From Candidatus Doudnabacteria bacterium RIFCSPHIGHO2_02_FULL_43_13b (GTDB taxonomy: Bacteria > Patescibacteriota > Doudnabacteria > UBA920 > O2-02-FULL-48-8), in the NCBI GenBank assembly GCA_001777655.1, contig MFER01000013.1, positions 68,322 to 132,321 on the forward strand: DNA of 64,000 nucleotides. The letters are read 5' to 3'. A program made the translations under genes and the position numbers. Shown here piece after piece: positions 35,003 through 59,165 of the stretch (the stretch's first letter is position 1; each line of letters begins with the position of its first letter). The notes beneath the pieces were generated by a model, which searched no databases, was not told the origin of the DNA, and was given only the letters and a program-made list of their open reading frames with translations.

Positions 35003-36445
35003 TTAAAGATTACGTAAGAATTTTAAAGTTAGGTATACTCCCCAGCCAGTCGCACCCACTGTCAGGTGTTTTTTTGGTCGCATCGTCGAGGCCGTACCTG
35101 CAATGTCCAAATGAATCCAAGGGGTATTTTGCACGAAATGTTTTAAAAATAGCGCTGCCGTAATCACCCCCGCTAAGCCTTTTTCACCAACATTCTTCAA
35201 ATCAGCAACTTGGCTCTGGAGCTGATCTTGATACTCGGACACAAGCGGTAAGGGCCAGAGATTTTCGGCAGTGGCTAAGCTTGCTTGGTTTATTAATTTG
35301 TCATAAGTTTTGGTATTGGCAAAAAACCCGGTATATTCATCACCTAAAGCCACTAATACCGCCCCAGTTAAGGTGGCGTAGTCAATGATCAGTTTGGGTT
35401 GATAATGTTTTTTGGCAAAACTAATCGCATCCGCCAAAACTAGCCGGCCTTCTGCGTCAGTATTAATAATTTCTACGCTGGTTTTATCGTGAGCGACTAA
35501 AATATCGCCTGGTTTTAAAGCGGCGCCTGAGACCAAATTTTCTGCCGCTGGAATGATGGCGACCAGATGGCTTGAGAGTTTGAGCATGGCCGCCGCTTGC
35601 ATAACGCCAAGCACAGTTGCCCCGCCCGCCATGTCGAATTTCATTTCTTCCATTTTTTCGGCAGGTTTAATCGAGATCCCGCCGCTGTCAAATGTTAATC
35701 CTTTGCCAATTAAGACTATCGGTGGCTGTTTTTGATTCCCTGATTCTAAAATAATAAACCGAGGGGGTTCGTCAGAGCCCCGGGAGACTCCTAAAATTAG
35801 GCCTAATTTTTCCCTCATCATTTCTGATTCACCGAGGATTTTGTAATTTAGTTTATATTTTTTGGCAATGGTTATGGCGTGTTGGGCTAAGTGTTTCGGG
35901 GTCATGATGTTGCCTGGATGATTAGCCAAGTCCCGCGCTTGGTTGGTAGCCAGACCGATCATCCCTCCATCATTAAGAGCTGTTTTATAGCTTTTATTGT
36001 TCTGAATCACGATCTCTATTTGTTCAAAAGCTGGCGTTTTGTTGCCTTGTTTATAAATATTAAATTGGTAAGCACTATGCGTTACAGCAAAACCCGTAAG
36101 TTCCAAATAATTTGGGACCCAAGCTCGGTTGACGCTTGGCAGAAACAAACTGATTGATTTTGCTTGTAATTTTTGAGCGTTAGTGATGGCAGTATGGATG
36201 GCAATTCGCCAATTTTTTGCACCAAAATTTTGCTTCTTTCCCAAAGCGATTAATAACAGCCGAGCTGTCGGGGTATAGACGAGCAGACTATTGCCAATTT
36301 CATTTTTAAAATCAGCCAAAGCAGCTTCGGGTATTAAGAGTTTAGTTTTTTGCTTAACCGTCTTGGCTGCCTCCTCGTTTTCAAACAATGGAAAAACAAT
36401 CAGATCGGTTTTACTAGATAGTTTTGGATTGAGAGTAATTTTCAT
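35003..36445 (-). CDS. pepA: Leucyl aminopeptidase (M17)
   Basis: GKGLTFDSGG, MKFDMAG, NTDAEGRL, ATLTGA, HLDIAG. Confidence 0.96.
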   Translation of the reverse strand: MKITLNPKLSSKTDLIVFPLFENEEAAKTVKQKTKLLIPEAALADFKNEIGNSLLVYTPTARLLLIALGKKQNFGAKNWRIAIHTAITNAQKLQAKSISLFLPSVNRAWVPNYLELTGFAVTHSAYQFNIYKQGNKTPAFEQIEIVIQNNKSYKTALNDGGMIGLATNQARDLANHPGNIMTPKHLAQHAITIAKKYKLNYKILGESEMMREKLGLILGVSRGSDEPPRFIILESGNQKQPPIVLIGKGLTFDSGGISIKPAEKMEEMKFDMAGGATVLGVMQAAAMLKLSSHLVAIIPAAENLVSGAALKPGDILVAHDKTSVEIINTDAEGRLVLADAISFAKKHYQPKLIIDYATLTGAVLVALGDEYTGFFANTKTYDKLINQASLATAENLWPLPLVSEYQDQLQSQVADLKNVGEKGLAGVITAALFLKHFVQNTPWIHLDIAGTASTMRPKKHLTVGATGWGVYLTLKFLRNL

Positions 36446-36546
36446 CCCGATTAGAAATTTTGATTAGTTAATTATACGATTTAATTAGATTATTCCCGTT
36501 GAATACATTTTTCTTGGCAAAGATGCTTGTGAGTATTTCTAACGGG
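36446..36546. mobile_element. MITE-like element family A abutting the pepA start codon
   Basis: TIRs CCCG.TTAGAAAT / ATTTCTAACGGG; minus-strand flanks ATGAAT and ATGAAA; homologous to 58625-58724. Confidence 0.8.
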
Positions 36547-36553
36547 ATTCATA

Positions 36554-37699
36554 TTATTGGGTTGAGGAAGGAGTTTCAGGGTTCGGAGTGGAGGGCTCGG
36601 TGACGGTTATTTTTTGGAACAGAGCAGGAGGGAGATAAGTGCTTTTGAAGGTTTGAGTAGTGGTTTGGTCATTCATAGTGACATGTCTAGTCCAGCTTGC
36701 TTTCATGGAGCCGTCTGGTTTTTGATCGAATTGGTATGGTCCTTCAAATACTACACTACGGTTATCTTTTGTGCCATAGAACTCAAAGTAGAGTTTACGA
36801 CCAACAATTTTGGTATGAATCAAAAAACTGCTCGGTAAGTTGTTAGTAAATTTTAAATCCAAGGCCCCCGGGTAGATCGTGGCATCGGAACCTTGTGGTG
36901 CGTAGTATTTTACGGCAAAAGAGTGATTCCGGCGAGCCGTAATCGGTAACCCCGCGTTCATCGCCGCTCGAAAAGCAGTGGTAGAGACTTGGCAGAGGCC
37001 TCCACCAAACTCTGGCACCAGGCCATCGGGTTTAATGACCAGCTCCGGCAAAAATCCGTGTTCCGCATCCACGTCGCCTAAAAATTTGTTGAAAGAAAAT
37101 TCTTCCAGGGGTTTAATAATCACTCCGTCGTATTTTTTTGAGCCGACGCTGATGTTATGAACCCGGTTAGCGGGAGAACCAGAGAAGTCCGACTCGCCTG
37201 CCGCCACTAATTCATTAATACCCAAGGTATTGGTTTGGGACAGTTTAATTTTTGGTTCTGAAATTAAAACCGGCAACCCAACAAGCAAGGCATCAGATTG
37301 CAAACTTTGGGCCAGAGAATAAATATCTAGGGCTTGTCCGTTTTGGCCTGGATTGAATTCTTCCGCCTTGCCGTTTTGCAAAATCAACTTGGCGTTTTCG
37401 GTTGATTGATTAATCTGGGCAGTTAAATCCTCGATTTGATTGATTGTGGCTGGGTCAAAAATTTTTCCTGGTTGTTCTAAATTTTTATCCAAAACTACCG
37501 AATTGATCAGACTAACTAGGGAAAAATCATTCCTAGTGTATGCTTGAGTAAGAAAATTAATACTATTAGTTTCAATTTCCCATTTTTTTTCACCAAAAAG
37601 TAAAGTTTTCCCAGAAACGATGGTAGGTAGGAGTAAAAGGGCAAGAACAATATTAAATTTTATGATTTTGGATCGTAACATTTCTGGTTTGGTTAGCAT
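36554..37699 (-). CDS. VanW family protein
   Basis: R.HNI, FSFN, GGGLCQVSTT.F, R.NHS, G.DAT; start uncertain. Confidence 0.9.
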   Translation of the reverse strand: MLTKPEMLRSKIIKFNIVLALLLLPTIVSGKTLLFGEKKWEIETNSINFLTQAYTRNDFSLVSLINSVVLDKNLEQPGKIFDPATINQIEDLTAQINQSTENAKLILQNGKAEEFNPGQNGQALDIYSLAQSLQSDALLVGLPVLISEPKIKLSQTNTLGINELVAAGESDFSGSPANRVHNISVGSKKYDGVIIKPLEEFSFNKFLGDVDAEHGFLPELVIKPDGLVPEFGGGLCQVSTTAFRAAMNAGLPITARRNHSFAVKYYAPQGSDATIYPGALDLKFTNNLPSSFLIHTKIVGRKLYFEFYGTKDNRSVVFEGPYQFDQKPDGSMKASWTRHVTMNDQTTTQTFKSTYLPPALFQKITVTEPSTPNPETPSSTQ

Positions 37700-38081
37700 T
37701 GATTTTGATCGTGATGATTAGATCGCATCGGGTTTTTACTTTCGGAAAACGATCAACCCATTCGATCAGTACCACATTTTTTTCACCAAGAATTTCATCT
37801 AAACCCAAGACCGAAAGTTGGTCCAGTTTTTTCAGCCGATAAAAATCTAGATGAAATAAAACCCGGGAGTCGAACTTATATTGATGGATGACAACAAAAC
37901 TCGGACTGCTGATTTTTTGAATTCCCAAAGCCCGGGCAAAGGCTTTGACAAAGGTGGTTTTCCCAGCCCCCAAGGGGCCGATTAACCCAATCACATGGGC
38001 CTTTTTACGATACCTCATCCCTAGGCTTTTGCCTAGATTTTGAAATTGTTTTAGGCTTAAGTTTTTAAGCTTCATCGCCAT
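37653..38081 (-). CDS. tsaE: tRNA t6A biosynthesis ATPase TsaE
   Basis: GPLGAGKTTF, SPSF, HLDFYRL, IEW. Confidence 0.94.
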   Translation of the reverse strand: MAMKLKNLSLKQFQNLGKSLGMRYRKKAHVIGLIGPLGAGKTTFVKAFARALGIQKISSPSFVVIHQYKFDSRVLFHLDFYRLKKLDQLSVLGLDEILGEKNVVLIEWVDRFPKVKTRCDLIITIKINANQTRNVTIQNHKI

Positions 38082-38082
38082 A

Positions 38083-38225
38083 CCCAGTATATCAACTTCG
38101 ATAAATGGTTTATTGGCTTTTGCATAAAATTAAAGTCTTTATTATAGATTTTTTGCTTAATCTATTATTATTAGTTTGATAATAAAACCATTTAGGGGCA
38201 AAAGCATCGAAGTTGTATTACTGGG
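38083..38225. mobile_element. MITE-like element family C abutting the tsaE start
   Basis: TIRs CCCAGTATATCAACTTCGAT / ATCGAAGTTGTATTACTGGG; homologous to 48128-48274. Confidence 0.8.
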
Positions 38226-38283
38226 CTTATTTTAGCAGCTATTGACGACTTAGCCAAAACCAATTATAGTAATATGATTTATG

Positions 38284-38425
38284 CCCGGTAGTAGAAATTT
38301 GATATTTATCCCGCGACTCGTGGGATAAATAAAAAACAACCGCGCGATAAAATTTCTTTGCTGGTTATAATAATCAAAGACAATTAGTAACTAATTTATT
38401 CTTTAATCAAATTTTCACTACCGGG
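38284..38425. mobile_element. MITE-like element family B abutting the DHH-gene start
   Basis: TIRs CCCGGTAGTAGAAATTTGAT / ATCAAATTTTCACTACCGGG; TATG on both sides. Confidence 0.8.
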
Positions 38426-38426
38426 T

Positions 38427-39566
38427 ATGGAAATCACAGCTCAAATTACCTCAAAAATTTCACAGGCCGCCACAGTCTTGATTATTGTGGCAGGAGATAG
38501 CGGTGATAGCCTGGCCGCCGGTTTAGCATTGCAAGGATTTCTTAAAAAACTGGAGAAGGAAACCGCTGTTTTATCCTTCACCCCGAAATTGAACAAGCTA
38601 GATTTTTTGCAAGGATTTAGGGAGGCTCGGGAAGAGCTGGATGTGACCAAAAGTTTTGTCATTGACGTCTCAACCAAGCAGACGCAAATCGAGGAACTAA
38701 GTTATAAAAAAGAGGTTGATAAACTCTCGATTTTTATTAAACCTAAAAAAGGCCAATTCGAAAAAAATGACATTAGTTTCCGCAGTTCAAACTTTCCCTT
38801 CGATTTATTAATCATGATCGGGGTTGACTCGCTGGACCGTTTGGGGCAGCTTTATAATGAAAATACGGAATTATTTTTTGAAACCCCGATTTTAAATATC
38901 GATTTTAAGGCTACTAATGAAAATTTTGGGCAATATAATCTAGTGAATTTGACTGCCACTTCCAATTCGGAAATTGTGTTTGATTTAATCAACCACATTG
39001 AGGCTACCTTTATTGATGAAGCGATCGCGACTCAACTGTTAACCGGGATTATTTCCGAAACCGAAAGTTTCCAGCATGTTCGGACTACACCCCAAACTTT
39101 TCTCAAAGCTTCCCAGTTAGTCAGTTTAGGCGCCAACCAACAGGAAATTATCTCAAGGCTTTATAAGACGAAAAGTTTGGGGTTACTAAAGCTATGGGGC
39201 CGGGTTCTTGCTCGTCTGCAGCAGGCGCCAGAAATTTCTTTGGTTTATTCGTCAATTAATCAAACCGATCTAGAACGCTCACAGGCTTCGGAAGAAGACG
39301 TTCAGACTATTATCAAGGAAATGTCGATGCAGTTAGGGTTTGCCAAACTGTTTTTATTTTTTAAAGAAGACCAGTCCAACCAAACCTCTGTTTGGTGCCA
39401 CTCCACTCTGCCGGTTGATTTAAGACAAATTTTCGCCCAGTTTAAGCCCAAACTACTCGCTTACCAGACGACCTATTTTAGTTTGAACCAACCGTTATCT
39501 GAGGCGGAAAAACAAATCGTCTCGTTGCTAAAAAGTGACATTGCCAAATATAAATTGAACATGTAA
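38427..39566 (+). CDS. DHH/NrnA-like protein with degenerate active site
   Basis: ILNIDFK in place of NIDHH, ATSNSEIV, ATQLLTGII.ET.SF. Confidence 0.7.
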   Translation: MEITAQITSKISQAATVLIIVAGDSGDSLAAGLALQGFLKKLEKETAVLSFTPKLNKLDFLQGFREAREELDVTKSFVIDVSTKQTQIEELSYKKEVDKLSIFIKPKKGQFEKNDISFRSSNFPFDLLIMIGVDSLDRLGQLYNENTELFFETPILNIDFKATNENFGQYNLVNLTATSNSEIVFDLINHIEATFIDEAIATQLLTGIISETESFQHVRTTPQTFLKASQLVSLGANQQEIISRLYKTKSLGLLKLWGRVLARLQQAPEISLVYSSINQTDLERSQASEEDVQTIIKEMSMQLGFAKLFLFFKEDQSNQTSVWCHSTLPVDLRQIFAQFKPKLLAYQTTYFSLNQPLSEAEKQIVSLLKSDIAKYKLNM

Positions 39567-39567
39567 A

Positions 39568-39596
39568 CATCCCGCCAATGGCGGGGTGTTTTTTTC
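39568..39596 (+). terminator. Rho-independent terminator
   Basis: ACATCCCGCC-AAT-GGCGGGGTGT followed by a T run. Confidence 0.7.
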
Positions 39597-39612
39597 GTGA
39601 TATACTAAAATC

Positions 39613-41253
39613 ATGTCCAACCAAGCCGATAAAGCGATGCGGCTAAAGCAGGTTTACTCTGAGCTTAATCGCAAGTTTGAAGAAGAAGAAACTCAAAGGC
39701 AAGCGCTAAAACTTAACCTTCCCTATATTAATTTATATGGTTATCCGACCGATACCCAGGCTTTAAACGTGCTGTCGAAAGAAGACGCCCAAACGCATGA
39801 CGCCGCGGTATTTTTCCGCGAAGGGCGAGTTTTAAAATTAGGGGTAGTCAAACCTTCCCCGAGCCACCAGCAATTAATTAAGGAATTAAAAGAGCTAGAC
39901 TATACCGCTGAAATATACCTAATTTCCCACAGCAGTTTGCAACACCTTTTTGGTGGTTATAATGTGCTGCTATCGACGAAACAGAGATCCTCAGAAATTA
40001 AATTGATCAGCAGCGACCCGCGGTTTAAAGCTGCTTCGATTAAAGAATTTGGTCAGCAATTATCGAAAGTTTCGGCCACGGAACTGATCGATGTGCTTTT
40101 GGGATCGGCCTTAGATTTAGATTCCTCGGATATTCATGTTGAACCAGAAGGCGCCGATTTGAAAATTCGATTTCGCATAGACGGGGTGTTACAAGACGTC
40201 GCCGCTCTTTCGTTGGATACTCACCATCAAATGGTTTCCCGAATCAAAATTTTATCCAAGATGAAACTGAATATAACAACCACTCCACAAGACGGCAGTT
40301 TCGGCCTGACTTTTAATCAATCGCAAGTGGATGTCAGGGTTTCGGTCCTCCCATCGGCTTACGGCGAATCTATCGTGATGCGGATACTGCGACAGGACAA
40401 GGGTTCATTGCAGTTTGAGGAGTTGGGGATTGTCGGATTGGCCCGCGAGCGGATTTTGAAAGAAATTGAAAAACCTAACGGCATGATTTTAACCACCGGG
40501 CCGACCGGTAGCGGCAAAACTACGACTCTCTACGCAATTTTGAAACGTCTCAACGAACCAGGGATTAAGATCATCACTTTGGAAGATCCCGTGGAATATA
40601 AGATCGAAGGGATTACCCAAACCCCGATAGATACTCGCGCTGGCATGACTTTTGCTTCGGGCCTGCGAGCCATTTTTCGACAAGATCCGGATATTATCAT
40701 GGTTGGAGAAATGCGCGATTTAGAAACTGCTGAAACCGCCTGCCAAGTCGCTTTGACCGGACACATCGTTTTGTCGACCCTCCATACCAATGATGCGCCG
40801 TCCGCGATCCCGCGGTTGTTAGATTTGGGCGTTAAACCATTTGTGCTCGCTCCCGCCATCAATGCGATCATCGCCCAGCGATTAGTGCGGAAAATTTGCA
40901 CCGCTTGCAAGGAAAGTTATAAACCGTCAGGAAGATTGCAAGAACGCGTGGAAATGATTTTGAAAGCAGTGCCCAAATCTGCTCAAGCCGACATCCCTTC
41001 AAAACTTAACTTCTACCACAGCCCGGGTTGTAGCGTATGCAAAGGTTTGGGGTATAGGGGGCGAATGGGTGTTTATGAAGCCTTTAATATTAGCGATGAG
41101 ATTGAAAAAATGATTACTCGAGGCGCTACGACTACGGAAATTCGCAACCAAGCCATCAGTGAGGGCATGTTAACTATGGCCCAGGATGGGCTATTAAAGG
41201 CCTTGCAAGGGATCACAGACGTGGAAGAAGTATTTCGGGTGACCGAAGAGTAA
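39613..41253 (+). CDS. GspE/PilB family type IV pilus assembly ATPase
   Basis: SDIHVEP, PQDG, TGPTGSGKTTTLY, EDPVEY, RQDPD, TGH..STLHTN, CxxC pairs. Confidence 0.95.
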   Translation: MSNQADKAMRLKQVYSELNRKFEEEETQRQALKLNLPYINLYGYPTDTQALNVLSKEDAQTHDAAVFFREGRVLKLGVVKPSPSHQQLIKELKELDYTAEIYLISHSSLQHLFGGYNVLLSTKQRSSEIKLISSDPRFKAASIKEFGQQLSKVSATELIDVLLGSALDLDSSDIHVEPEGADLKIRFRIDGVLQDVAALSLDTHHQMVSRIKILSKMKLNITTTPQDGSFGLTFNQSQVDVRVSVLPSAYGESIVMRILRQDKGSLQFEELGIVGLARERILKEIEKPNGMILTTGPTGSGKTTTLYAILKRLNEPGIKIITLEDPVEYKIEGITQTPIDTRAGMTFASGLRAIFRQDPDIIMVGEMRDLETAETACQVALTGHIVLSTLHTNDAPSAIPRLLDLGVKPFVLAPAINAIIAQRLVRKICTACKESYKPSGRLQERVEMILKAVPKSAQADIPSKLNFYHSPGCSVCKGLGYRGRMGVYEAFNISDEIEKMITRGATTTEIRNQAISEGMLTMAQDGLLKALQGITDVEEVFRVTEE

Positions 41254-41431
41254 TAGGAGTGAGACGATTATTAATTTTTCTATAATTATCTTTTACTATC
41301 ATTTTTTGACCGGTCGGACAAAATTTGAGAGTAATCATTTCATCCATTTTTCAATCTCCTGATCTGACTTCACCCAAGCTTGGTCGGACAAGCAGGCGTT
41401 TTTTTGATATGATAATTGTATCGATACTTCT

Positions 41432-43741
41432 ATGGAATTTAAGCAAAAACTCCTTTTAATTGATGGGCATGCGCTGTTTCATCGCGCTTATCACGCCTTG
41501 CCCAATATGACTGGGCCGGGCGGGTTTCCGACTGGCGCGATTTTCGGCTTTTTGTCCATGTTATTTAAAGCTTTGGTGGACATCAAACCGACCCATGCTT
41601 TGGTAACCTTTGACGTGCCTGGCAAAACTTTCCGCGATGAAATGGCGGCAGATTACAAAGCGCACCGCAAGGCGCCGGATGAACAGATGGTGATCCAACT
41701 CCCCAAGCTCAAAGAAATTTTGGCCGCGCTTGATATTCCAATTTATGAAAAAGAAGGATTTGAAGCCGATGATCTGCTCGGCATTATCTGTCACAAAACT
41801 TTAAAAGATGTCTTGAATATTATTGTCACTGGCGATTTGGATTTGTTGCAGCTAATCGATAATCATACCCATGTTTATCGGTTCAAAATTGGCTTTTCGG
41901 ATATCCAAATTTTCGATGCGGATAAAATGGTGGAAACTTTCGGGCTGCACCCGTCACAATGGGTGGATTACAAAGCCATCCGCGGGGATACTTCGGATAA
42001 CATTCCCGGTGTGCCAGGCATTGGTGAGAAAGGGGGCCTGGAATTGATTAAACAATTCGGATCTCTGGACGGCGTGTATGAAGCCGTAAATCAAGGAGCA
42101 GGCTCCGACGCTTCGGTCGGAGCAGGCAAAATCAAACCCGGGACCTTGAAAAAATTGATGGCTGGCAAAGATAAGGCATATTTATCTCAAAAATTAGCGC
42201 ACATTGACCAAACCAACCATCTGGATTTTGATTTTGAAGACACATTGCTTGATAAATATGATCAGGAAAAAACCAAAGAGTTATTGCATACGCTCGGAAT
42301 CAAAGCTTTGGATTCGAGACTGCCAGGGCTTAAGCAAGTTGAAAGTAAACAGGAAGCAGGAAGCAGTAAGCAGAGTGGTAAATCAAATAAATCTAATAAT
42401 CTAATCAAATCTGAAGCCCAAGCCCAAATCGCGGCATATCTTCTCGATCCCGGTCGGCGAAGTTATGATACGAGTAACTGGGACGAACTAGCTAAACAAC
42501 TGAGCGAACAGAAAAAACTTCTCGAACTTTATCAAGAGATTGAACTGCCGCTGATGCCAGTGCTTGAAAAAATGCAACAGCGCGGCGTCAAGGTGGATTT
42601 GCCTTGGCTGAAATCGTTAAGCGTGAAGCTTGAAGCGCGAATTGCAACTTTAACGAAACTGATTTACAAAGAAGCGAACATGGAATTCAATATCGCTTCC
42701 CCGATTCAACTGCGCGAAGTGCTGTTTGAGAAACTTAAGATTCCGACAGAGAATATTCGCAAAACCGGCAAAACCAAAGCGCTTTCCACGGGTGCGGAAC
42801 AGTTGGAAAAATTGCGCGGCCTGCACCCGATCATTGAATTAATCTTCGAGTATCGAGAACTGGCGAAACTCAAATCTACCTACATTGATGCGTTGCCGGA
42901 GTTAGTCGGACCAGATGACCGGATTCATACAACCTATAGCCAAACGATCTCGGCGCATGGGCGGCTGTCCTCGGTTAATCCCAATCTGCAGAATATTCCC
43001 ATCAAAACCGAACTGGGCAATAAAGTGCGCAAGGCTTTTATCGCTGATCCTGGCCAGGTCTTGTTGTCTTTGGATTATTCGCAGATTGAATTGCGCATAG
43101 CCGCGTCGTTGTCAGGGGACGCGGAGATGATTAAGATTTTTGACAAAGGCGAAGATTTTCATAGCGCCACGGCGGCGAGAATTTTCGGCGTGAAGGAGTC
43201 GGAAGTTACCCCGAAGCAACGACGCGATGCCAAAACCATTAATTTCAGCATTCTTTATGGGGTGTCAGCCTTCGGTTTATCCGAACGATCGGAAATGGAG
43301 CGGGCGGAAGCGGCCGACTATATCAAAAAATACTATGAAGCTTTTCCGCAATTGAAAGCCTATATCATGGGCCTAATTCAACTGGCCCACCAAGACGGCT
43401 TTATGACCAACCCGTTGGGTCGGATCCGTTATTTTCCGGAAATTCATGATTCGAAGTTCGCGGTTCGCACCGCGGCCGAGCGCTCGGCTGTGAATATGCC
43501 CATGCAATCGCTGGCTGCGGATATTATTAAAATGGCCATGATTGAGATTGATCAGAAATTGCCGGATCTAAAAATGCTCTTGAGTGTGCATGATGAATTA
43601 GTTTTTGAAGTAAAAGAAGGCGAGGAGAAAATTTGGGCGGCCAAAATTAAGCCGATCATGGAATCCGTCTATCAATTAAAAGTGCCAGTGATGGTGGAGG
43701 CCAAATTCGGCAAAAATTGGGCGGAGATGAAAAAGATATGA
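41432..43741 (+). CDS. polA: DNA polymerase I with 3'-5' exonuclease domain largely missing
   Basis: 5'-3' exonuclease (LIDG, EADD, GDTSDNIPGV) and polymerase (PNLQNIP, DYSQIELR, VHDEL); 769 aa. Confidence 0.96.
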   Translation: MEFKQKLLLIDGHALFHRAYHALPNMTGPGGFPTGAIFGFLSMLFKALVDIKPTHALVTFDVPGKTFRDEMAADYKAHRKAPDEQMVIQLPKLKEILAALDIPIYEKEGFEADDLLGIICHKTLKDVLNIIVTGDLDLLQLIDNHTHVYRFKIGFSDIQIFDADKMVETFGLHPSQWVDYKAIRGDTSDNIPGVPGIGEKGGLELIKQFGSLDGVYEAVNQGAGSDASVGAGKIKPGTLKKLMAGKDKAYLSQKLAHIDQTNHLDFDFEDTLLDKYDQEKTKELLHTLGIKALDSRLPGLKQVESKQEAGSSKQSGKSNKSNNLIKSEAQAQIAAYLLDPGRRSYDTSNWDELAKQLSEQKKLLELYQEIELPLMPVLEKMQQRGVKVDLPWLKSLSVKLEARIATLTKLIYKEANMEFNIASPIQLREVLFEKLKIPTENIRKTGKTKALSTGAEQLEKLRGLHPIIELIFEYRELAKLKSTYIDALPELVGPDDRIHTTYSQTISAHGRLSSVNPNLQNIPIKTELGNKVRKAFIADPGQVLLSLDYSQIELRIAASLSGDAEMIKIFDKGEDFHSATAARIFGVKESEVTPKQRRDAKTINFSILYGVSAFGLSERSEMERAEAADYIKKYYEAFPQLKAYIMGLIQLAHQDGFMTNPLGRIRYFPEIHDSKFAVRTAAERSAVNMPMQSLAADIIKMAMIEIDQKLPDLKMLLSVHDELVFEVKEGEEKIWAAKIKPIMESVYQLKVPVMVEAKFGKNWAEMKKI
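42095..42127. repeat. 24-nt hairpin insert in frame in polA
   Basis: GGAGCAGGC repeated at a 24-nt spacing around CTCCGAC-GCTTCG-GTCGGAG. Confidence 0.6.
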
Positions 43742-47961: not shown

Positions 47962-48057
47962 CCAGGTAGTAGAAATTTGATTAATGCTTAAATTTACTGC
48001 AAGGTGTTATATTAATCTGTTCGCGAAGCGAACAGATATGAAATTTTCACTACCTGG
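47962..48057. mobile_element. MITE-like element family B abutting the uvrB start
   Basis: TIRs CCAGGTAGTAGAAATTT / AAATTTTCACTACCTGG; CATA (TATG on minus) on both sides. Confidence 0.8.
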
Positions 48058-48127
48058 CATAGTAAATTTCATTGTAGCAGAAATTTGTTGCGGGTGTATA
48101 GACCAACAGAGTATAATACGTTTATGA

Positions 48128-48274
48128 CCCAGTAATACAACTTCGATGCTTTTGCCCCTAAATGGTTTTTGAATTAACCTTCATTAGTTATATGACTAAG
48201 AATACAGTTAATAATAATGGTTTTTTTAGCGCAAAAGCGCACACAAAAACCATTATCGAAGTTGATATACTGGG
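48128..48274. mobile_element. MITE-like element family C abutting the ruvA start
   Basis: TIRs CCCAGTAATACAACTTCGAT / ATCGAAGTTGATATACTGGG; ATGA on both sides. Confidence 0.82.
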
Positions 48275-48841
48275 ATGATTGGATCAATTAAAGGCAGGGT
48301 TTCCAACAAAGGCACAGGGTACGCCATCCTGGATACTGGCAGTGTTGGCTATAAGATTTTTATTACTCCCACGCTTTGGGCGACCTTGAAGTTAAATCAA
48401 GAGATTGTTTTAATGATTCATACTTATGTTCGAGAGGATCAGCTCACTTTATATGGATTTCCCAGTTTACCAGAACTAGAATTTTTTGAACTACTCCTGA
48501 CTGTTTCCGGCGTCGGACCCAAATCGGCTTTAGGGATCATGTCTTTAGCTTCGATTGAGATGATCAAATCAGCGATCGTGTCAGAGGATCCGTCGGTGTT
48601 TACTAAAGTATCAGGGATTGGCAGAAAAACGGCGGAACGCGTAATTTTGGAATTGAAAGAAAAACTAAAAGATGAATCGTCGTCAACTCCGGTCGCCAAA
48701 GAACATTCGGATGCGATGGACGCCCTGATCGCGCTGGGGTACACTCAACAACAAGCCCGGGAAGTCTTAAAAACTGTACCCAAAGATGTGGTGGATTTGC
48801 AGGCCAAAATTAAGATGGCATTGAAGAGTTTAAATAAGTAA
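48275..48841 (+). CDS. ruvA: Holliday junction DNA-binding protein RuvA
   Basis: VGY, VRED..LYGF, VSGVGPK, GIGRKTAER, AL..LGY. Confidence 0.97.
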   Translation: MIGSIKGRVSNKGTGYAILDTGSVGYKIFITPTLWATLKLNQEIVLMIHTYVREDQLTLYGFPSLPELEFFELLLTVSGVGPKSALGIMSLASIEMIKSAIVSEDPSVFTKVSGIGRKTAERVILELKEKLKDESSSTPVAKEHSDAMDALIALGYTQQQAREVLKTVPKDVVDLQAKIKMALKSLNK

Positions 48842-48879
48842 GCAGGAAGTAGTAATCAGTAAGTAGATACGTCACCGAT

Positions 48880-49238
48880 ATGAATCATGGATATCAAAAT
48901 TTGATTGTTTGGCAGAAATCAATGTTGGTTGTTAAGGGCGTCTATAAAATCACAGGAGAATTGCCTAAACAAGAACAGTATATTTTAGTTTCACAGATGC
49001 TAAGAGCGGCAATATCTATTCCGTCAAATATTGCTGAGGGATGGTCACGCTAACTGGAATCAAGAGTTTATACGATTTTTTGAAATAGCCTTTGCTTCGC
49101 CTGCGAGCTGGAAACTCAGTTATTGATATGTAAAGATCAATATCAAAAAATAGATTGTAGTTCTGTCGAAGCGATCCTCGTAGAGGTTAAAAAATGTTAA
49201 CGAGTCTTATTCAGAACAAAACAAGGGCCCGGTTCTGA
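48880..49238 (+). pseudogene. Four-helix-bundle (23S rRNA IVP/Avd-like family) pseudogene flanked by inverted heptamer arrays
   Basis: YQNLIVWQKS...VY..T..LP..EQY.L.SQM.RAAISIPSNIAEG, then a stop and frameshifts through EFIRF..IA..S / ELETQL. Confidence 0.85.
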
Positions 49239-49264
49239 TTACTGCTTACTATTTACTGACTGCT

Positions 49265-50197
49265 ATGATAAGCGCTCTTACAGAACAAACTTGGGATGCG
49301 AAAGTTGTCGAGCTGGGCGGCTCGATTTTGCAATCATGGAGTTGGGGTGAATTTCAGAAATTTCTAAATCAAAAAATTTACCGTTTTTCTGGTCAGGATT
49401 TTATTTGTTTGGCAGTTGGAATCGAATTGCCACTAGATAAAAAATATATTTATTGTCCCCGCGGCCCAGTTGGCAATCTCGAGTCTGCTTTGAGTGATTT
49501 AAAAAAATTAGCAGAGGACCATTCTATTATTTTTTCACGGCTTGAACCCCCCCAACCGCTGTTATTGCCGAAAGCGATCAAAGATGTTCAGCCTCCGAAC
49601 AATTGGATGTTGTCATTGGAAAAATCCGAAGAAGAATTATTGATCGGGATGAAACCAAAAACCCGCTACAATATCAATTTGGCCCAGCGTAAAGGAGTGT
49701 CGGTGCGGCTTGGGAACCAAGTTGACCTTTTGGATTTTTATAAGTTGATGCTGGAGACGGCGAAGCGCAATCAGTTTAAATTACATCCGCAGAATTATTA
49801 TTTGCAGATGTGGGATCATTTAGCTCCAACTAATTTGCAATTACTCTTGGCTTATTATAAGAATCAATTATTATCAGGAATGCTGTTGTCATGGTTTGGC
49901 GATTCGGCGACTTATCTGCATGGTGGGTCCTCGGTCAGATTGAAAGAGGCAATGGCCCCTTATTTAGTGCATTGGGAGGCGATTAAATTAGCTAAAGAGC
50001 GGGGGTACAAAACTTATGACTTTGGCGGAGTGGCTCCGGGCAATCAAACAGGGCATAGTTGGGCGGGAATCTCGAGGTTTAAGAAGGGTTTTGGCGGCTT
50101 TGAGGTGACCTATCCCGGAGCTTATGACCTAATTTACTCGCCAATTTGGTATAATGTTTATACGCAAGCATGGAGCTTACGAAAAATCTTAAGGTAG
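49265..50197 (+). CDS. FemABX family peptidoglycan peptidyltransferase
   Basis: LQSW.WG, Y.PRGP, KTRYNI, YLHGGS, YDFGG, FKKGFGG. Confidence 0.92.
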   Translation: MISALTEQTWDAKVVELGGSILQSWSWGEFQKFLNQKIYRFSGQDFICLAVGIELPLDKKYIYCPRGPVGNLESALSDLKKLAEDHSIIFSRLEPPQPLLLPKAIKDVQPPNNWMLSLEKSEEELLIGMKPKTRYNINLAQRKGVSVRLGNQVDLLDFYKLMLETAKRNQFKLHPQNYYLQMWDHLAPTNLQLLLAYYKNQLLSGMLLSWFGDSATYLHGGSSVRLKEAMAPYLVHWEAIKLAKERGYKTYDFGGVAPGNQTGHSWAGISRFKKGFGGFEVTYPGAYDLIYSPIWYNVYTQAWSLRKILR

Positions 50198-50265
50198 TAA
50201 ACAGAAAACAGTAAGCAGTAATCAGAATTAGTTCCTGTTTCCTGATTACTATTTACTGCTTACTA
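50196..50265. repeat. Gene-less inverted heptamer array
   Basis: AGTAAAC AGAAAAC AGTAAGC AGTAATC ... GATTACT ATTTACT GCTTACT; same units as the flanks of 48880-49238. Confidence 0.75.
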
Positions 50266-50270
50266 AATTT

Positions 50271-50840: not shown

Positions 50841-50841
50841 T

Positions 50842-51168: not shown

Positions 51169-51273
51169 CAACTTTTAAAAAAAGATTAAGATAGTAATGT
51201 GATATCAAACTTAATAAGCTTATAGCCAAAAGAGCGGCTCTTTTTGCATATGTGCAGAAAGAGAGATTATTTT

Positions 51274-54200
51274 ATGTCTCAAAAAAAGAAAATGGCTAAT
51301 CTTAGCCTAAATTTTAGCCCAACAAAGAATCTTCAAAACTCCCGAAGGTTCTTCACTTCATTTACCGAGGTGATGGAGATGCCCAATTTGATTGAAGCCC
51401 AAATTCGATCTTATAAATGGTTTTGGGAAAAGGGACTCAAGGAGCTGTTTGCCGAAATTAACTCGATTAAGGATTTTACAGGGAAGAACTTAGAGCTATT
51501 TTTTGGCGATTACTATCTTGATAAGCCTAAATATGATGAAAAAACCGCGAAAGAACGCAACACCACTTATGAAGCTCCGCTTTATGTTTCGGTAAGATTG
51601 GTGAACAAGGTGACCGGCAAGACTAAGACCCAAGATGTTTATCTGGGTGATTTTCCATTGATGACCCCTCGAGGAACCTTTGTGATCAATGGAGTAGAAC
51701 GCGTGGTGGTTTCACAGTTAGTCAAATCACCAGGCGTTTTCTTTAGCGCTGAAGTTGCCCGGGGCCGGAACTGGTATGGCGCCAAGATTATTCCCAATCG
51801 CGGAGCTTGGCTTGAAATCGAAACCGATATTAATGGCATAATCAGTGTCAAGATCGATCGAAAACGCAGAATTCCAATCACGGCCCTGATGCGAGTATTT
51901 AAGTTTACGACTGACGAAGAAATTCTGTCAGCCTTTGCCGACGTGGATACCAACCCCGATCTTCGATACATTCAAAACACTTTAGAGAAGGATCCGTCGA
52001 AGAGCGCTGATGAAGGATTTAAGGAAGTATATAAAAGAATTCGACCAGGAGATTTGGCGACAGTCGATAACGCGCGATCCTTGATCGAGGCCATGTTTTT
52101 CCACGCTGATCGCTATGATCTTTCAGAAGTTGGTCGCTACAAGCTAAATCAGCGTTTAAATGTCAAAGATCGACAGGACCGGATTTTAACCAAACAAGAT
52201 TTAACTGAAATTATCCGCGAAGTAATCCGTTTAAATAACAGCCAAGGAATCTGGGATGACATTGATCATCTTTCTAATCGTCGAGTGAGGGCCGTGGGCG
52301 AGTTGATTCAGGGTAAGTTCCGAATTGGTCTGGCTCGCATGAGCAGAATCGCCAAGGACCGCATGAGTTTGGCAGATATCGAAACAGTAACGCCAGCCCA
52401 GTTAATTCATGTTCGTCCGATTGTCGCGGTTATTCAAGAATTTTTTTCCTCCTCTCAATTGTCTCAATTTATGGACCAGACTAATCCTTTGGCGGAACTG
52501 GAGCATAAGCGCCGATTATCAGCTATGGGGCCAGGTGGGTTATCGCGGGAACGAGCGGGATTTGAGGTTCGAGACGTCCATCGTTCTCACTATGGCCGAC
52601 TTTGCCCAATCACCACCCCGGAAGGACCCAACATTGGCCTGGTGGCCCATTTGGCTAGTTATGCCAGAATCAACGATTTTGGTTTTATTGAAACCCCTTA
52701 TCGAAAGGTCATTAAACAATTACCCAATAACGGCAAATCAGCCGTAGGCCAAGCCGCCCTTTATGATTTAAAAGACACTTCTGACCAAGTCCTTGTTTTG
52801 GCAGGCAAAAAAATTAGTAAAGAAGCGGCCGGCAAGCTAGCTGCGAATAAAGCGCTGGGAATGATTCGAATCAAACCTTATTTGACCGAGGAGATTGAAT
52901 ATCTTGATGCCTACGAAGAACAACTGACTATTATTGCCCAGGCTAATGTATTGACTGACGAGCAGGGATATTTTATCGATGAAAGAACTTCGGTTCGAGT
53001 TCATGGCGAACCGTCCATTGCCGAAACTTCTGAAATAGATTATGTTGAAGTTTCTCCCAAACAAATTATTTCAGTCACGACTTCTCTGATTCCTTTTTTG
53101 GAGCACGATGACGCGAACCGAGCCTTGATGGGATCCAACATGCAACGTCAAGCGGTTTCCTGTATTAAACCCCAAGCTCCTGTTGTTGGTACTGGCGTAG
53201 AGTCTAAGGCTGCTTATGATTCTGGCCAAGTAGTAATTACCGAAACCGCTGGAGTAGTATCAAGTGTCTCCGGTGAAAAAATTATCATCGCGGAAAAAAC
53301 CGGGAAAAAACGTGAATACTCTCTGCAAAAATTTGTTCGTTCCAATACTTCGACTTCGATTAACCAACACCCAACTGTCAAAAAAGGAGAAACGGTCAAA
53401 GCCGGCCAGCCAATTGCCGATGGTGCCGCGATTGAAAACGGGGAACTGGCCTTGGGTCAAAACATGTTGGTCGCTTTTATTTCTTGGGAAGGCGGCAATT
53501 ACGAAGACGCAATTTTGATTTCTTCCCGGGTCGTGGAAGAAGATCGTTATTCTTCAATTCATATCGAAGATTTTAAGGTTGACGTTCGGGATACCAAATT
53601 GGGACCTGAAATTATTACTCGAGATATTCCAAATGTCGGAGAAGAGAAGCTGAAAGATTTGGATGAACTTGGAGTGATTCGAATTGGGGCCCAAGTCAAA
53701 GCCGGTGACATTTTAGTTGGAAAAATTACTCCGAAAGGAGAAACGGATCTGACTGCTGAAGAAAAATTACTCCGAGTTATTTTCGGCGAAAAATCCCGCG
53801 ACGTGAAAGACACTTCTCTGACATTGCCGCACGGTGAATACGGTAAAGTTGTGCATATTCGAGAATTTTCTCGTGAACAAGGCGACAAATTACCATCGGG
53901 CGTGATCAGATCGATTCAGGTGTCAGTCGCGGTGCTTCGAAAAATTCAAGTGGGTGATAAAATGGCTGGTCGTCACGGCAACAAGGGAGTTATTTCCCAG
54001 GTAATCCCAGTTGAAAACATGCCATTTATGGCTGACGGCACGCCAGTGGATATAATTTTAAACCCTTTGGGAGTGGCAAGCCGCATGAACATCGGCCAAA
54101 TTTTGGAAACTCATTTAGGTTTGGCGGCTCAGCGACTCGGGTATACCGTCGCCTCCCCGGCGTTAAATGGGGTGTCGGAAGAGATCATAAAACAAGAACT

Positions 54201-54759
54201 TGATAGAGCTGGTTTCCCTCAAGATGGAAAGGTGACTTTGTTTGATGGGAAAACCGGGCAGCCATTTTTAGAAAAGGTGACGGTGGGCATAATTTATATG
54301 TTGAAACTGCACCACCTAGTTGATGATAAAATGCATGCTCGCTCCACCGGCCCTTATTCCTTAATTACCCAACAGCCCTTAGGTGGTAAAGCACAATTCG
54401 GTGGCCAAAGGTTTGGGGAAATGGAAGTCTGGGCTTTAGAAGGATACGGAGCAGCGCACACCCTACAGGAAATGCTGACTATAAAATCTGATGACGTGGT
54501 TGGTCGGGCGAAGACCTATGAATCGATCGTTAAAGGCGAGCCGATCAAAAAGCCAAATGTGCCGGAATCTTTCCGGGTCTTGGTGAAAGAATTGCAATCG
54601 TTGTGTTTGAGTGTCGAATTGGTCGGCGAAAAGTTGGCCCGTGACAATGAAGTTAGTAGCGAGATTCGCGAGCTTGCGACTACCGATGTCCAAATTCCAA
54701 TAGAGGAGAAAGAAGAGATTTTAGACGATAAAGGAAAAAAGAGGAAGGGGAAAAAATAA
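51274..54759 (+). CDS. rpoB: RNA polymerase beta subunit
   Basis: [36 protein letters not shown]; start 51274 or 51292. Confidence 0.99.
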
Positions 54760-54763
54760 TCTT

Positions 54764-57700
54764 ATGTTACAAGCAACCGAAGAATTTAAAGCCGTCCGAC
54801 TCAGGCTCGCTTCACCCGCGGATATTTTGAATTGGTCGTATGGAGAAGTGACCAAGCCGGAGACTATTAATTATCGCACTCAACGGCCGGAGAAAGACGG
54901 TTTATTTGATGAGAAAATTTTTGGTCCGATTAAAGATTGGGAGTGTTATTGTGGTAAATACAAGCGCATTCGTTATAAAGGAATTATTTGCGATAAATGC
55001 GGCGTGGAGGTGACTCGCGCAGCAGTCCGCCGAGAGCGGATGGGCCATATCAAACTGGCCGCTCCCGTCGCTCACATTTGGTTTTTGCGCGGCGTGCCAT
55101 CCAGGTTAGGTTTAGTTTTAGATCTTTCAGTCCAGGAACTTGAGAAAGTCGTTTATTTTGCAGCTTATATTATCACGAATGTTGATGAAGAAGCCAGGTC
55201 AGCTACCCAAGAACAGATTGAGCGAGAATTTAAAGCGAAACGAAAAGAAATTGACGGTCGTTATGAGCACTTACTTAATCAATCCAAAGAAGAGGCTGAG
55301 GGCTTGCGAACCAGAGACATGTGGAGTAAGGAGATTGAACATTTAGAATCAATTCGTGATTTGGCCCGCTCGGAACTTAAATCCATCAAAAAATACCAAA
55401 TTATTTCGGAATTGGAATATCGCGATCTGTCCTTAAAGTACGGTCCGGTCTTTCAGGCCGGCATTGGAGCCGCAGCGATTGAACAGTTGGTTTCGGAGAT
55501 TGATTTGGAAAAACTATTTACCTTGTTGCGAGAAGAAATTAATACCGCGGAAGGCGTGAATAAGCGTAAATTAATTAAACGTCTCAAGTTGGTCAAATCG
55601 ATGATTAAATCCGCGATCCGACCCGAATGGATGATTATCCAAAACTTGCCGGTCATCCCGCCGGATCTGCGTCCGATGGTTCAATTAGATGGTGGTCGGT
55701 TTGCCGCTTCGGATTTGAACGATTTATACCGTCGAGTGATCAATCGTAATAATCGATTAAAAAAACTTTTGGAAATCGGCGCGCCGGAAGTGATTACTAG
55801 GAATGAAAAAAGAATGTTGCAAGAGGCAGTGGATGCTCTGATTGATAATTCTATCCGGCATGGTAAGGAAGTCACGGCTTCGACCGGTCAAAAACGTAAA
55901 CTTCGATCGTTAGCGGATATGTTGAAAGGCAAACAAGGAAGATTCCGACAAAATCTTTTAGGTAAACGTGTGGACTATTCCGGCCGCAGCGTGATTGTGG
56001 TGGGACCGAAATTGAAACTGCACCAGTGTGGTCTGCCGAAAAAAATGGCCTTGGAATTATTTAAACCATTTGTCATTTCTAAATTGATTTTAAGAGAGTT
56101 TGCTCATAATGTTCGCAGTGCCAATCGGTTGATTGAGCAAGGACGACCAGAGGTTTACGATATTTTAGAAGAGGTGACCAAACATCACTATGTCTTGCTC
56201 AATCGAGCCCCGACCCTGCATCGATTAGGTTTTCAAGCTTTTTTGCCAGTCTTAATTGAAGGCAAGGCCATCCAGATTCATCCCATGGTTTGTGATGCTT
56301 ATAACGCTGATTTTGACGGTGATCAAATGGCTGTCCATGTTTCCCTGACCGAAGCCGCTCAAGAAGAAGCGCGGAACATTATGTTGTCTGCCAAAAATTT
56401 GTTGAAGCCAGCCTCCGGAGAACCAGTCATGGGACCTACGAAAGATATGGTCTTAGGATGTTTTTGGTTGACCCGCATCCAGGCGGGTCAAAAGGGAGAA
56501 GGCATGGTTTTCGGCAGCGCAGAAGAAGCAATTTTGGCCTACCAATCCGGGATTTTAAGTTTGAAAGCCAAAATTAAAATTCGTTTGGGAGAAAAATGGG
56601 GCAATTTGGGTTTAACAGAAACTTGCGTTGGCCGGGTAATGTTTAATCAGATTTTACCGGAGGGGGTTAGGTTTAATAACGAAGTCATGGATAAAAAGAA
56701 ACTGCAACAGGCCTTACAGGTAGTTTATCGGGATTTTGGCATTGAGCGTACGGCCGATCTTTTAGATGAGATTAAAAAATTAGGGTTTAATTACGTCACC
56801 AAATCAGGTTTGTCTTGGGGGATGGAAGATTTGAAGGTGCCGGAAATTAAGAAACAATTGGTTGAACAAGCCGATCGAGAAGTTTTGGAAACTTACGAAC
56901 AACATCGAATGGGACTGTTGACTGAGCAAGAACGATATAATCGGGTGATTGAAATTTGGGCTACGGTCCGTGATAAAGTGGCGGAAGCTGTGACGAAAAG
57001 TTTGGATGAATATGGACCGGTTTATCAAATGGTGATTTCCGGAGCGCGGGGATCAGTTTCGCAGCTGGCTCAGATGGCTGGCATGAAAGGGTTGGTGACT
57101 AATCCGGCTGGGGACGTCATTGAATTGCCAGCCAAAGATTCATTTAAAGAAGGTTTAAGTATTTTAGAGTATTTTATCTCTACTCACGGTTCCCGTAAAG
57201 GGATGACCGACACGGCGTTGCGGACTGCCGATGCTGGATACCTGACTCGTCGGTTGGTTGATGTGGCGCAGGATATCGTGATCAACGCTGAAGATTGTGG
57301 GGTTGAAGAGGGTCGGATTATTACTAGGGCCTCTTCGGAAGCCTTGGGCCGACCTTTGGCTCGGCGAATTTTTGGTCGGGTCTTGGCAGCCAACGTGAAA
57401 GACGCCTCTGGTAAAGTCATTGCCAAGGCAGGGACCCTAATTGACGATAAACTCTCGGTTGAAATTGAAAAATCTACCACTGATCAAGTAGAGGTCCGAA
57501 CCGTACTTCGCTGCACCCTAACTCGCGGCGTTTGTACCAAATGTTATGGTTATGACCTTGGCTTTAATCGATCCGTCGAACAAGGAGCGGCAGTCGGGAT
57601 TGTCGCAGCGCAGGCGATTGGAGAACCAGGAACTCAGCTGACCATGAGAACTTTCCATACAGGAGGGGTGGCGGGCTTAGATATTACCCAAGGTTTGCCT

Positions 57701-58600
57701 CGGGTCGAGGAGTTATTAGAGGCCCGTGAACCGAAAGGTCAAGCGGTAATTTCCGAAATCGATGGATTCGTTTCCGAAATTAAACCTACGAACAAAGAAA
57801 CCACGATTCGGGTGGAAGCCAAAGAGATTTCCCAAGACAAATACGCTCTCGATCTGCCAAGTGGGGGGCCACGATTACAATTAACTGATGGCGAAGGAGT
57901 CAAGCAAGGGGATCCACTGTTCGTCAATACCAAAGGTGAGACGATCAAGGCTAAAGCACCGGGAGTCGTAAAGATTAAAAATAATCAATTGTTCGTCGTT
58001 CATGAATCTGAGAATTTTAAAGAATATTCAGCGCCGCTTGGCTTTAACGTAATTGTGAAACAAGGTGAGCTGATTACTAAAGGGCAGGCCTTAACCGAAG
58101 GTAATTTGAACCTACATCAATTATTTATTTTGAAGGGAATTGAGGCTTGTCAGGATTATATCATCAAAGAGGTCCAGGAGATTTATTCTTCCCAAGGACA
58201 AAATGTGAACGAAAAACATATTGAGATTATCGTACGACAAATGTTTTCCAAAGTTCGAATCACTGAAGCCGGAGATGCTGATCTTTTAATCGGGGATTTG
58301 ATAGATAAATCGAGATTACAAATGGCTAACGCGAAAATTGAAAAAGGCAAAGAAGCACAAGCCGAACAACTCCTTATGGGAATTACCAAATCATCTTTGA
58401 ATACCGAATCGTTCTTGGCTGCCGCTTCTTTCCAAGAAACCACGAGGGTTTTAATTGAGGCAGCGGTCACGGCAAAAACAGATTATTTAAGGGGTTTGAA
58501 AGAAAATGTGATTATCGGAAAACTTATTCCAGCTGGCACCGGTTTTCGAAAAGAAGCGCTGGGTGAAAAAGAAGCGGCTGAAATTGCCGATAATATTTAA
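54764..58600 (+). CDS. rpoC: RNA polymerase beta' subunit
   Basis: KPETINYR, Zn-binding Cys, [25 protein letters not shown]. Confidence 0.99.
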
Positions 58601-58624
58601 AAGCGGTATACTAACGCCATGAAT

Positions 58625-58724
58625 CCCGTTAGAAATTTCACATTGCGAGTTTATACTAAAAACACTCTCTGACGGGCTGATTATAAAGAAATTATTTATT
58701 AACTAATCAAAATTTCTAAACGGG
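58625..58724. mobile_element. MITE-like element family A abutting the start of ORF 58725
   Basis: CCCGTTAGAAATTT...AAATTTCTAAACGGG with ATGAAT on both sides. Confidence 0.82.
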
Positions 58725-59165
58725 ATGAATAAATACATCCAAGGAATTATCTTATTAATCTTGGTCGTTGCGGCAATCTTTTTGATTCCTAAGAAACAAG
58801 AACAGGCGCCACCAACCCAGGTTACTGACCAACAACCTCAAGCTATTCCAGAAGTGATTGTTGATACCCCGCAACCCAACGATGTGATCATAAGCCCAGT
58901 GACTGTGACTGGCCGCGCTCGTGGGTTTTGGTATTTCGAAGCCAATTTACCAGTGACGCTGAAAGATGGCAATGGCAATGTTTTGGCGCAAAAAGGTTTT
59001 CAGGCTATTGGAGATTGGATGACCACGGATCATGTGGATTTTTCTGACACTTTAATATTTATTACTCCGGCCACGCAATACGGCACTTTGATTATCAGTA
59101 AAGATAACCCGTCGGGCGAGCCGATCAACGACGCTGATTTCGTAGTCCCTATAAGATTTTGGTAA
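58725..59165 (+). CDS. Membrane-anchored Gmad2-type immunoglobulin-like domain protein
   Basis: SP..V.G.ARG.WYFEA..PV.L.D..G...WMT...DNPSG. Confidence 0.8.
   Translation: MNKYIQGIILLILVVAAIFLIPKKQEQAPPTQVTDQQPQAIPEVIVDTPQPNDVIISPVTVTGRARGFWYFEANLPVTLKDGNGNVLAQKGFQAIGDWMTTDHVDFSDTLIFITPATQYGTLIISKDNPSGEPINDADFVVPIRFW

Follow-up and report, generated by a model that had tools for sequence, protein, structure and literature searches.

Inverted-repeat elements on the gene starts of a Doudnabacteria genome and their longer relatives with a GIY-YIG nuclease gene

Six short elements in the window

The stretch of DNA analysed here (64,000 nucleotides, hereafter the window) is C13:68322-132321 of Candidatus Doudnabacteria bacterium RIFCSPHIGHO2_02_FULL_43_13b (assembly GCA_001777655.1, contig MFER01000013.1; a C-number given as a contig or before a colon is the number of a contig in this genome). 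The assembly comprises 17 contigs and 776,513 bp at a completeness of 99.7%, and our own hexamer gene caller assigned it 836 genes and 86% coding DNA. Six short elements with terminal inverted repeats (TIRs) lie in the window, two from each of three families (A, B and C). A sequence-only reading of the window had placed each of them at the start of a gene, and their places, flanks and position at gene starts were confirmed. The elements and their host genes are as follows.

36445-36547, minus strand: short family A element A1, 103 bp, TCCCG...CGGGA, whose final base doubles as the A of the pepA start codon
36548-36552, minus strand: original ATG captured by A1 together with the upstream copy of the TGAA duplication; 1 nt past the vanW stop, and the start of a 20-codon upstream open reading frame (uORF)
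35003-36445, minus strand: pepA (M17 aminopeptidase), host gene of A1; 6/6 orthologues lack the element
38083-38225, minus strand: short family C element C1, 143 bp; flanks TAAG/TATG, the upstream copy differing by one base
37653-38081, minus strand: tsaE, host gene of C1
38284-38425, plus strand: short family B element B1, 142 bp; TATG/TATG at 38280-38283 and 38426-38429
38427-39566, plus strand: DHH/NrnA-like gene, host gene of B1; weak NCBIfam match below the cut-off (E 5e-8), no Pfam match
47962-48057, minus strand: short family B element B2, 96 bp; TATG/TATG duplication, with a close empty allele in L258
45960-47960, minus strand: uvrB, host gene of B2; 16/17 orthologues empty, one with a different B copy
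48128-48274, plus strand: short family C element C2, 147 bp; ATGA/ATGA, inside a TATAAT-N6-ATG (leaderless-type) start
48275-48841, plus strand: ruvA, host gene of C2
58624-58725, plus strand: short family A element A2, 102 bp; TGAA/TGAA, with the captured ATG at 58619, 6 nt after TATACT
58725-59165, plus strand: open reading frame (ORF) of 146 aa with a Gmad2 (Ig-like) domain, host gene of A2
10284-10301, plus strand: degenerate lone right end of family C, flush with TTGACC-17 nt-TATCGT, a pair that resembles -35 and -10 boxes

A perfect 4-bp direct repeat flanks five of the six copies, the exception being the tsaE copy. The ATG-containing repeats described earlier for five of the six stand, with TAAG/TATG at the sixth; what did not hold is the unit proposed for family A, where a 6-bp ATGAAT duplication was rejected as its sixth base is variable, and the better reading is an element TCCCG...CGGGA that duplicates the 4 bp TGAA. 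The native ATG of a family A target stays upstream, and the last A of the element joins the duplicated TG to restore the host ATG, in line with the earlier claim that the element takes over the native AUG and regenerates one for its host. That claim's companion, that the window holds no further copy, is right for complete copies and overlooked the degenerate C end at 10284-10301.

At 96-147 bp, with TIRs and only short uORFs, the window copies have the structure of miniature inverted-repeat transposable elements (MITEs). All six are predicted to fold as RNA (z = -2.6 to -7.9), and the interior of A1 is 81-87% identical to those of four other A copies. The combination of an ungapped TIR with a 4-bp direct repeat abutting the start was found at 13/737 ATG starts and at none in two shuffles of each. 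We also note that both divergent gene pairs of the window (tsaE/DHH, 38083-38425; uvrB/ruvA, 47962-48274) carry an element on each start, one from family B and one from family C.

Distribution across genomes and site bias

A genome-wide census yielded 46 curated two-ended loci (single ends and two partial A copies at contig ends are excluded), of which 35 lie on ATG starts: 16/19 for family A, 14/16 for B and 5/11 for C. The start-located copies share a single orientation, the duplications measure 3-5 bp and mostly 4 bp, and about 4% of the genome's genes bear a copy on their start. As for the copies elsewhere, one A copy is at a possible TTG start and two are at other sites, both off-start B copies lack a 4-bp duplication, and family C has five copies at TTGA and one at CCTA. 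When insertions were compared with the sites available, all 16 ATGAA insertions of family A were at starts, with 182 start and 193 non-start ATGAA sites in non-coding DNA (p=9e-6), and all 193 free intergenic sites were unoccupied; for family B, 11/11 TATG insertions were at starts, with 411 start and 570 non-start sites available (p=7e-5). Copies are strongly enriched at ATG starts relative to expectation, and the earlier claim that the elements target translation starts is upheld to this extent for A and B; family C is start-targeted in only about half of its copies and also enters -35 boxes, and that the site is actively chosen is a further step, weighed below.

The host genes share no evident function. 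Among 26 scanned host proteins, 8 had no match and the named hosts include rplV, rplP, rplE, rplO, rplI, rplY, two adk, murI, recJ, trpS, ftsK, uvrC, secG and rny; in several the match to the model begins at residue 1-3, which makes the rebuilt ATG the true N-terminus. Ribosomal-protein genes take at least 6 of the 35 start insertions, a possible bias to highly expressed genes. Tandem A copies with a duplication between them, in which the same site was reused, occur at C13:151824-152033, C14:14927 and C8:110875 and also in L122 and L208, and at C2:28839 a single C left end is fused in frame to the N-terminus of the downstream gene, the rest of the element having been lost.

The same families extend beyond this genome. 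Exact ends were present in 13/24 (A), 9/24 (B) and 9/24 (C) genomes of the same taxonomic family, and a near-identical family A right end occurs in a Doudnabacteria record (L071). A GTDB scan for A ends yielded 120 loci out of an estimated 1,300 stretches, mostly from Patescibacteria and some from Planctomycetota; Collinsella-type matches and a few others among them were dropped for want of a right end. These loci hold 94 distinct two-ended short copies, of which 90 have ATGAA on the left, though the search pattern left the A free, and 79 reopen an ORF that has at least 60 codons or runs off the locus; none of the 94 exceeds 198 bp, so that these DNA-pattern matches include no long form. In three Planctomycetota loci (L018, L025 and L070), A copies of 40-59 bp lie within short ACGAAT/GAACAC-type repeats and not at long ORFs. 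Orthologous loci of ruvA, pepA and uvrB were compared for empty and occupied starts, and the starts were mostly empty: an element was present in 0/23, 0/6 and 1/17, respectively. The TATAAT-N6-ATG arrangement, identical to the reconstructed pre-insertion site, is kept in 18 of the 23 empty ruvA orthologues, and the one occupied uvrB orthologue has a B copy of a different length with a 3-bp duplication.

For families A and B, the start codon is a better description of the target than the transcription start, because A copies lie near upstream stops (9/16 loci within 12 nt, and four overlapping that stop as ATGA), B copies lie within an operon and leaderless starts are not preferred; the earlier preference for the start codon is borne out here. 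The three B copies within the ribosomal-protein operon, at rplV, rplP and rplE, are mutually 96-97% identical. In one low-depth contig of a population assembly (L340:1432-2815, run X9), the B copies at rplV and rplP are linked with the omission of 1,382 bases, either through recombination or because the assembly was routed through the repeat. The genome does have a leaderless-type class of starts, as seen from the peak of -10-like hexamers 6 nt 5' of the ATG (50 vs ~13 at other spacings), and ruvA and ORF 58725 are targets of this type. As a general rule, targeting of leaderless starts or transcription starts was rejected, since there was no excess (21/76 vs 27/131, p=0.31; in this genome 6/35 vs 71/639, p=0.27).

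A second kind of site is the -35 box. All nine TTGA insertions (five of family C in this genome and, in relatives, three of C and one of B) read TTGAC and are followed after 16-18 nt by a -10-like hexamer, as are 98/309 intergenic TTGAC sites (p=3e-5), and the duplication keeps the -35 box intact downstream. These family C insertions make the target wider than start codons. The CCTA site recurs. C copies in three genomes (C8:102888, L314 and L330) are preceded by similar GGTTAAGCC(T/C)A sequences, which may be an insertion hot spot within a non-coding RNA; RNase P was considered for it and Rfam gave no match in five loci.

Further elements of the same build (family E) survive at stop codons and at various other intergenic positions, which indicates that intergenic insertions are not simply purged. 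They are ~100 bp long, end in GGTGCGGGA/GGTGCTGGA, have TAAA/TGAA flanks and in several cases lie flush with a stop codon (C8:73638, C8:90301, C15:5786, C16:34747 and about a dozen more). A 312-bp GIY-YIG locus at C11:1427-1738 has ends related to those of family E, for which no long form was identified.

Long forms with a GIY-YIG nuclease gene

The sequence-only reading had reported no transposase and had pointed to longer copies with the same TIRs around an ORF as something to look for. Searches of the 17-contig genome with PF01797 (Y1_Tnp) and six families of DDE type (PF01609, PF12762, PF13701, PF00665, PF00872 and PF13546) gave no matches, in agreement with the first point; what changes it is that long forms with the same ends, found for all three families, carry a GIY-YIG nuclease gene. 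Three of the genome's 14 PF01541 matches lie between A, B and C ends.

Contig C16: family A long form, 277 bp, GIY-YIG gene only
Contig C13: family C long form, 315 bp, GIY-YIG gene only
Contig C6: family B long form, 331 bp, GIY-YIG gene frameshifted, no duplication

The A and C nucleases are single-domain proteins of 94 and 102 aa when read from the captured ATG, with PF01541 (E 2e-17 and 2e-15) over most of their length; the captured ATG shares the reading frame of the nuclease, which also has an ATG of its own. In family A, the C-terminus is encoded by the TIR and the duplicated TGA serves as the stop, overlapping the rebuilt host ATG. The catalytic-type Y, G, R, H and E columns are kept, and the median ratio of nonsynonymous to synonymous substitution (dN/dS) is 0.16 for A (147 pairs) and 0.13 for C (12 pairs), consistent with purifying selection.

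Of 80 metagenome loci with the A nuclease, 71 have anchored A-type ends (62 distinct) and 9 have no anchorable ends. The 35 long elements that end in A lie at starts in 28 cases, have a perfect duplication in 22 and are in every case followed by TRA; where an ATG was captured, 15/23 have an in-frame length. The C long forms behave similarly, with 13/17 at ATG starts and 11/13 in frame with the captured ATG.

In a tree of 58 rows and 89 columns, whose inner forks are weak, a single clade with support 96/93 unites the A and C nucleases, B (one row, for one of the two sequences of this family) and a few other proteins, in a sample from which subsampling omitted 18 of the 32 A-ending sequences. 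Each end type is paired with its own nuclease branch, and the clade excludes this genome's GIY-YIG proteins of tRNA-linked and Ssn-like type. The three families, described earlier as different, do have distinct ends; with their nucleases in one clade, they are sister lineages of a single nuclease-carrying superfamily. A sequence search of the PDB returned two UPF0213 proteins only.

The tRNA-adjacent GIY-YIG genes (window 9123-9368 on the minus strand, C8:60557, C17:7349 and C17:12128) lie directly 5' of tRNA genes, form a separate branch of the tree and are preceded by an apparent partial copy of the tRNA 5' end; they are probably a tRNA-targeting sister system. The Ssn-like genes are at C1:19764, C9:4215 and C17:13352.

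Short copies form subfamilies that are 81-97% identical at unrelated genes, while interior identity falls to 50-70% and the ends stay fixed; the length of the short copies is conserved despite such low interior identity. Several simple accounts of what they are or do were rejected: an origin as in-place deletions of the nuclease gene holds for C6:64663 only, a built-in promoter is not indicated by the -10-like hexamers, which have no strand bias (36 vs 37 of 79), and coupled translation was seen in 6/86 against 2.7 expected, with 72 stopping early. An inserted host keeps its promoter and gains a hairpin leader of 100-150 nt with a uORF of 3-46 codons.

Proposed mechanism, rival explanations and known systems

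We consider it probable that the six repeats, which lack a gene, are copies of GIY-YIG elements of ~277-331 bp from three sister lineages, likely moved by the nuclease and likely directed to starts by choice. From the comparisons of ends and genes, mobilisation of the ends by the nuclease, both in cis and in trans, has strong odds in its favour. Much as Ssn nucleases recognise their hairpins, the nuclease may recognise its ends once these are paired in single-stranded DNA; it would cut the target with a 4-nt stagger, leaving host repair to finish the insertion. What marks the site is probably the expression machinery, with DNA open around -35/+1 or at the start codon; the element would acquire a promoter and a start that serve its nuclease, and the host gene would be spared by the 4-bp duplication that leaves it an ATG. 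RNA polymerase pauses at start codons. Our tentative candidate for the cue, at somewhat worse than even odds, is RNA polymerase that is bound at promoters or paused at start codons and opens the DNA for a single-strand nuclease. Only slightly short of an even chance is the broader proposal of an insertion sequence (IS) class of ~280 bp in which an 85-residue GIY-YIG nuclease acts as a transposase steered by the host transcription and translation machinery, with lineages specialised on the start codon, the -35 box and the stop codon, which borrow start and stop codons and are harmless even in ribosomal-protein operons.

A number of observations weigh against this interpretation. We know of no strand-transfer chemistry for a GIY-YIG enzyme. 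With one exception, the interiors of short copies have no homology to the nuclease gene; together with the near-identical subfamilies at unrelated genes, this makes it likely that short copies moved as short forms. Among 25 G-ending relatives of family A, only 6 are at starts (GTG) and 5 have perfect duplications, and 8 have inverted flanks, which a plain staggered-cut model does not explain. Of the B copies in relatives (20 loci fetched), 12 are at ATG starts, 5 are paired elsewhere and 3 are unpaired, leaving 8/20 unpaired or off starts, and of the C copies in relatives (26 examined among 45 matches), 14 are at ATG starts and 12 are not. The B long form L247, which has TATG/TATG at a 406-aa ORF, has its captured ATG out of frame. 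Population contigs of six runs over two stretches contained no empty allele, though such contigs drop rare variants; their joints skip element interiors only and derive from other copies or organisms. Finally, gene starts were taken from our own caller, which is crude, although it recovered all six host starts in the window.

Active targeting, as opposed to selective retention, is to our minds the better-supported account of the site bias, and we hold it with fair assurance. The contrary view, which we regard as unlikely, is that insertion of the same elements follows a short preferred sequence and nothing more (TRAA in family A, xATG in family B) and that selection keeps the copies that rebuild an ATG while others are purged or deleted. 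The start bias does follow the terminal base, as this view would have it, with 28/35 A-ending elements at starts against 6/25 G-ending ones, which then use GTG; moreover, the wider A clade has TGAA/TAAA as the nuclease stop at any site, and upstream of family A sites no motif beyond ATGAA stands out. Retention alone fits poorly with 193 unoccupied intergenic ATGAA sites beside 16 occupied starts, with the persistence of E and C copies at intergenic sites other than starts, and with recent-looking copies (96-97% identical) exclusively at starts. Nor would nine of nine insertions into real -35 boxes be expected from harmlessness, as sites upstream of a promoter would be equally harmless and far commoner. 

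An improbable alternative concerns the enzyme: a separate, unrecognised transposase or recombinase could move the ends in trans, with the GIY-YIG protein as cargo or as a domesticated Ssn-like restriction system for single-stranded DNA (ssDNA). TIRs with 4-bp duplications are typical DDE footprints, and the negative search covered seven transposase families in a 17-contig assembly; SsnA cuts NTS-bearing ssDNA and modulates transformation, and its mobility is hypothesised only (PMC11893778). Against a separate enzyme stand the agreement of end types with nuclease branches, the A C-terminus within the TIR and its stop within the duplication, the purifying selection on the nuclease and the absence of matches to any of those seven families. 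We give almost no credence to the idea that the repeats are fixed regulatory leaders, or portable promoter and initiation cassettes like Neisseria REP2, rather than mobile parasites. Copies do adjoin starts with a uniform orientation and form hairpins when folded, and REP2 provides a promoter, a ribosome-binding site (RBS) and an ATG upstream of ORFs (PMC3184786), but the empty orthologues largely refute this reading, the original start and promoter remain upstream as the duplication, and neither a strand bias of -10-like hexamers nor a shared host function is found. Secondary regulatory effects on single genes are possible.

A full-text literature search, with most subscription papers outside its reach, brought up no account of GIY-YIG elements with TIRs, nor of bacterial elements targeted to start codons, the latter in line with the earlier reading, which knew of no such family. 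The closest system is Ssn/NTS (cd10448; Chenal et al. 2025), which has a ~90-aa single-domain GIY-YIG protein between inverted repeats and many gene-less repeats per genome, and whose NTS-ssnA-NTS unit is said to resemble an IS (PMC11893778). The A and C nucleases are likewise single-domain GIY-YIG proteins of <150 aa between inverted ends. The ends differ, however, being arms of a long-range TIR here and self-contained hairpins in the Ssn repeats, and target duplications, empty alleles and insertion at start codons and -35 boxes are features of the present elements. Of nine SRM-like matches in the genome, one adjoins the Ssn-like gene on contig C1 and none accompanies a long form of A, B or C; the two Ssn-like proteins of this genome in the tree, so labelled from that adjoining SRM-type repeat (one protein) and from motifs, fall outside the A/B/C clade on a long branch. 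The main text of PMC11893778 does not mention start codons, MITEs, duplication or Patescibacteria, and relatives of the present nucleases may be among the GIY-YIG proteins tabulated, with their flanking repeats, in its supplement.

Bacterial MITEs (reviewed in Delihas 2011, PMC3184786) share a length of <200 bp, TIRs, target duplications, the absence of a transposase gene and hairpin folding, to which the 46 dispersed two-ended loci and their empty orthologues correspond. Here, in contrast, the partner is a GIY-YIG protein and not a DDE transposase, start codons are targeted, and interiors diverge to 50-70% while ends stay fixed. The TnGBS/ISLre2/ISKra4 group (p-MULT) inserts in an oriented manner at a fixed position relative to sigmaA promoters, which was read as limiting the fitness cost (Guerillot et al. 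2014, PMC3942029), and oriented, signal-positioned insertion is common to both. That group uses a Mutator-like DDE enzyme, whereas PF00872 has 0 matches here and our elements lack such an ORF; it inserts 15-17 bp upstream of the -35 box, whereas ours insert within the -35 hexamer or on the ATG, at operon-internal genes too; and that paper does not mention 'start codon'. Neisseria REP2 and Borrelia IR-A are repeats that end in an ATG and lie directly upstream of ORFs; REP2 has a promoter and an RBS and lacks TIRs, whereas the present elements have TIRs, duplications and a nuclease partner (PMC3184786). In REP/RAYT and IS200/IS605 (HUH) systems, a small nuclease serves hairpin repeats, and their single-strand logic is a plausible parallel, but Y1_Tnp (PF01797) has 0 matches in this genome. 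IS200/IS605 transposition is not known to create a target duplication. The element thus behaves as a MITE/IS pair with promoter-type site choice, while no match was found to the defining enzyme of any transposon family checked; it would be categorically new if the nuclease has the role proposed for it from sequence.

These elements are likely a class of mobile bacterial DNA directed at signals for gene expression. If so, GIY-YIG enzymes would count among the few that mobilise bacterial DNA, and would do so in an element of <300 bp; the dozens of mobile repeats in a 777-kb, ~86% coding genome without a match to seven transposase families would be explained; and a DNA element would locate start codons without an obvious mark at the DNA level, which makes target selection via RNA polymerase or the initiating ribosome directly testable. 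Start annotation in Patescibacteria would be affected, because each insertion leaves two ATGs, and so small a start-targeted inserter would be a candidate tool.

Two further observations concern other parts of the window. A broken PF05635 (four-helix-bundle) gene lies between ruvA and the next gene (48837-49265 and 50196-50270), bracketed on both strands by short AGTAAGC-type tandem repeats, and 7-nt tandem repeats of the TTTGAAT/TTCGAAT type occur within coding regions at 60353-60400 and 63027-63060.

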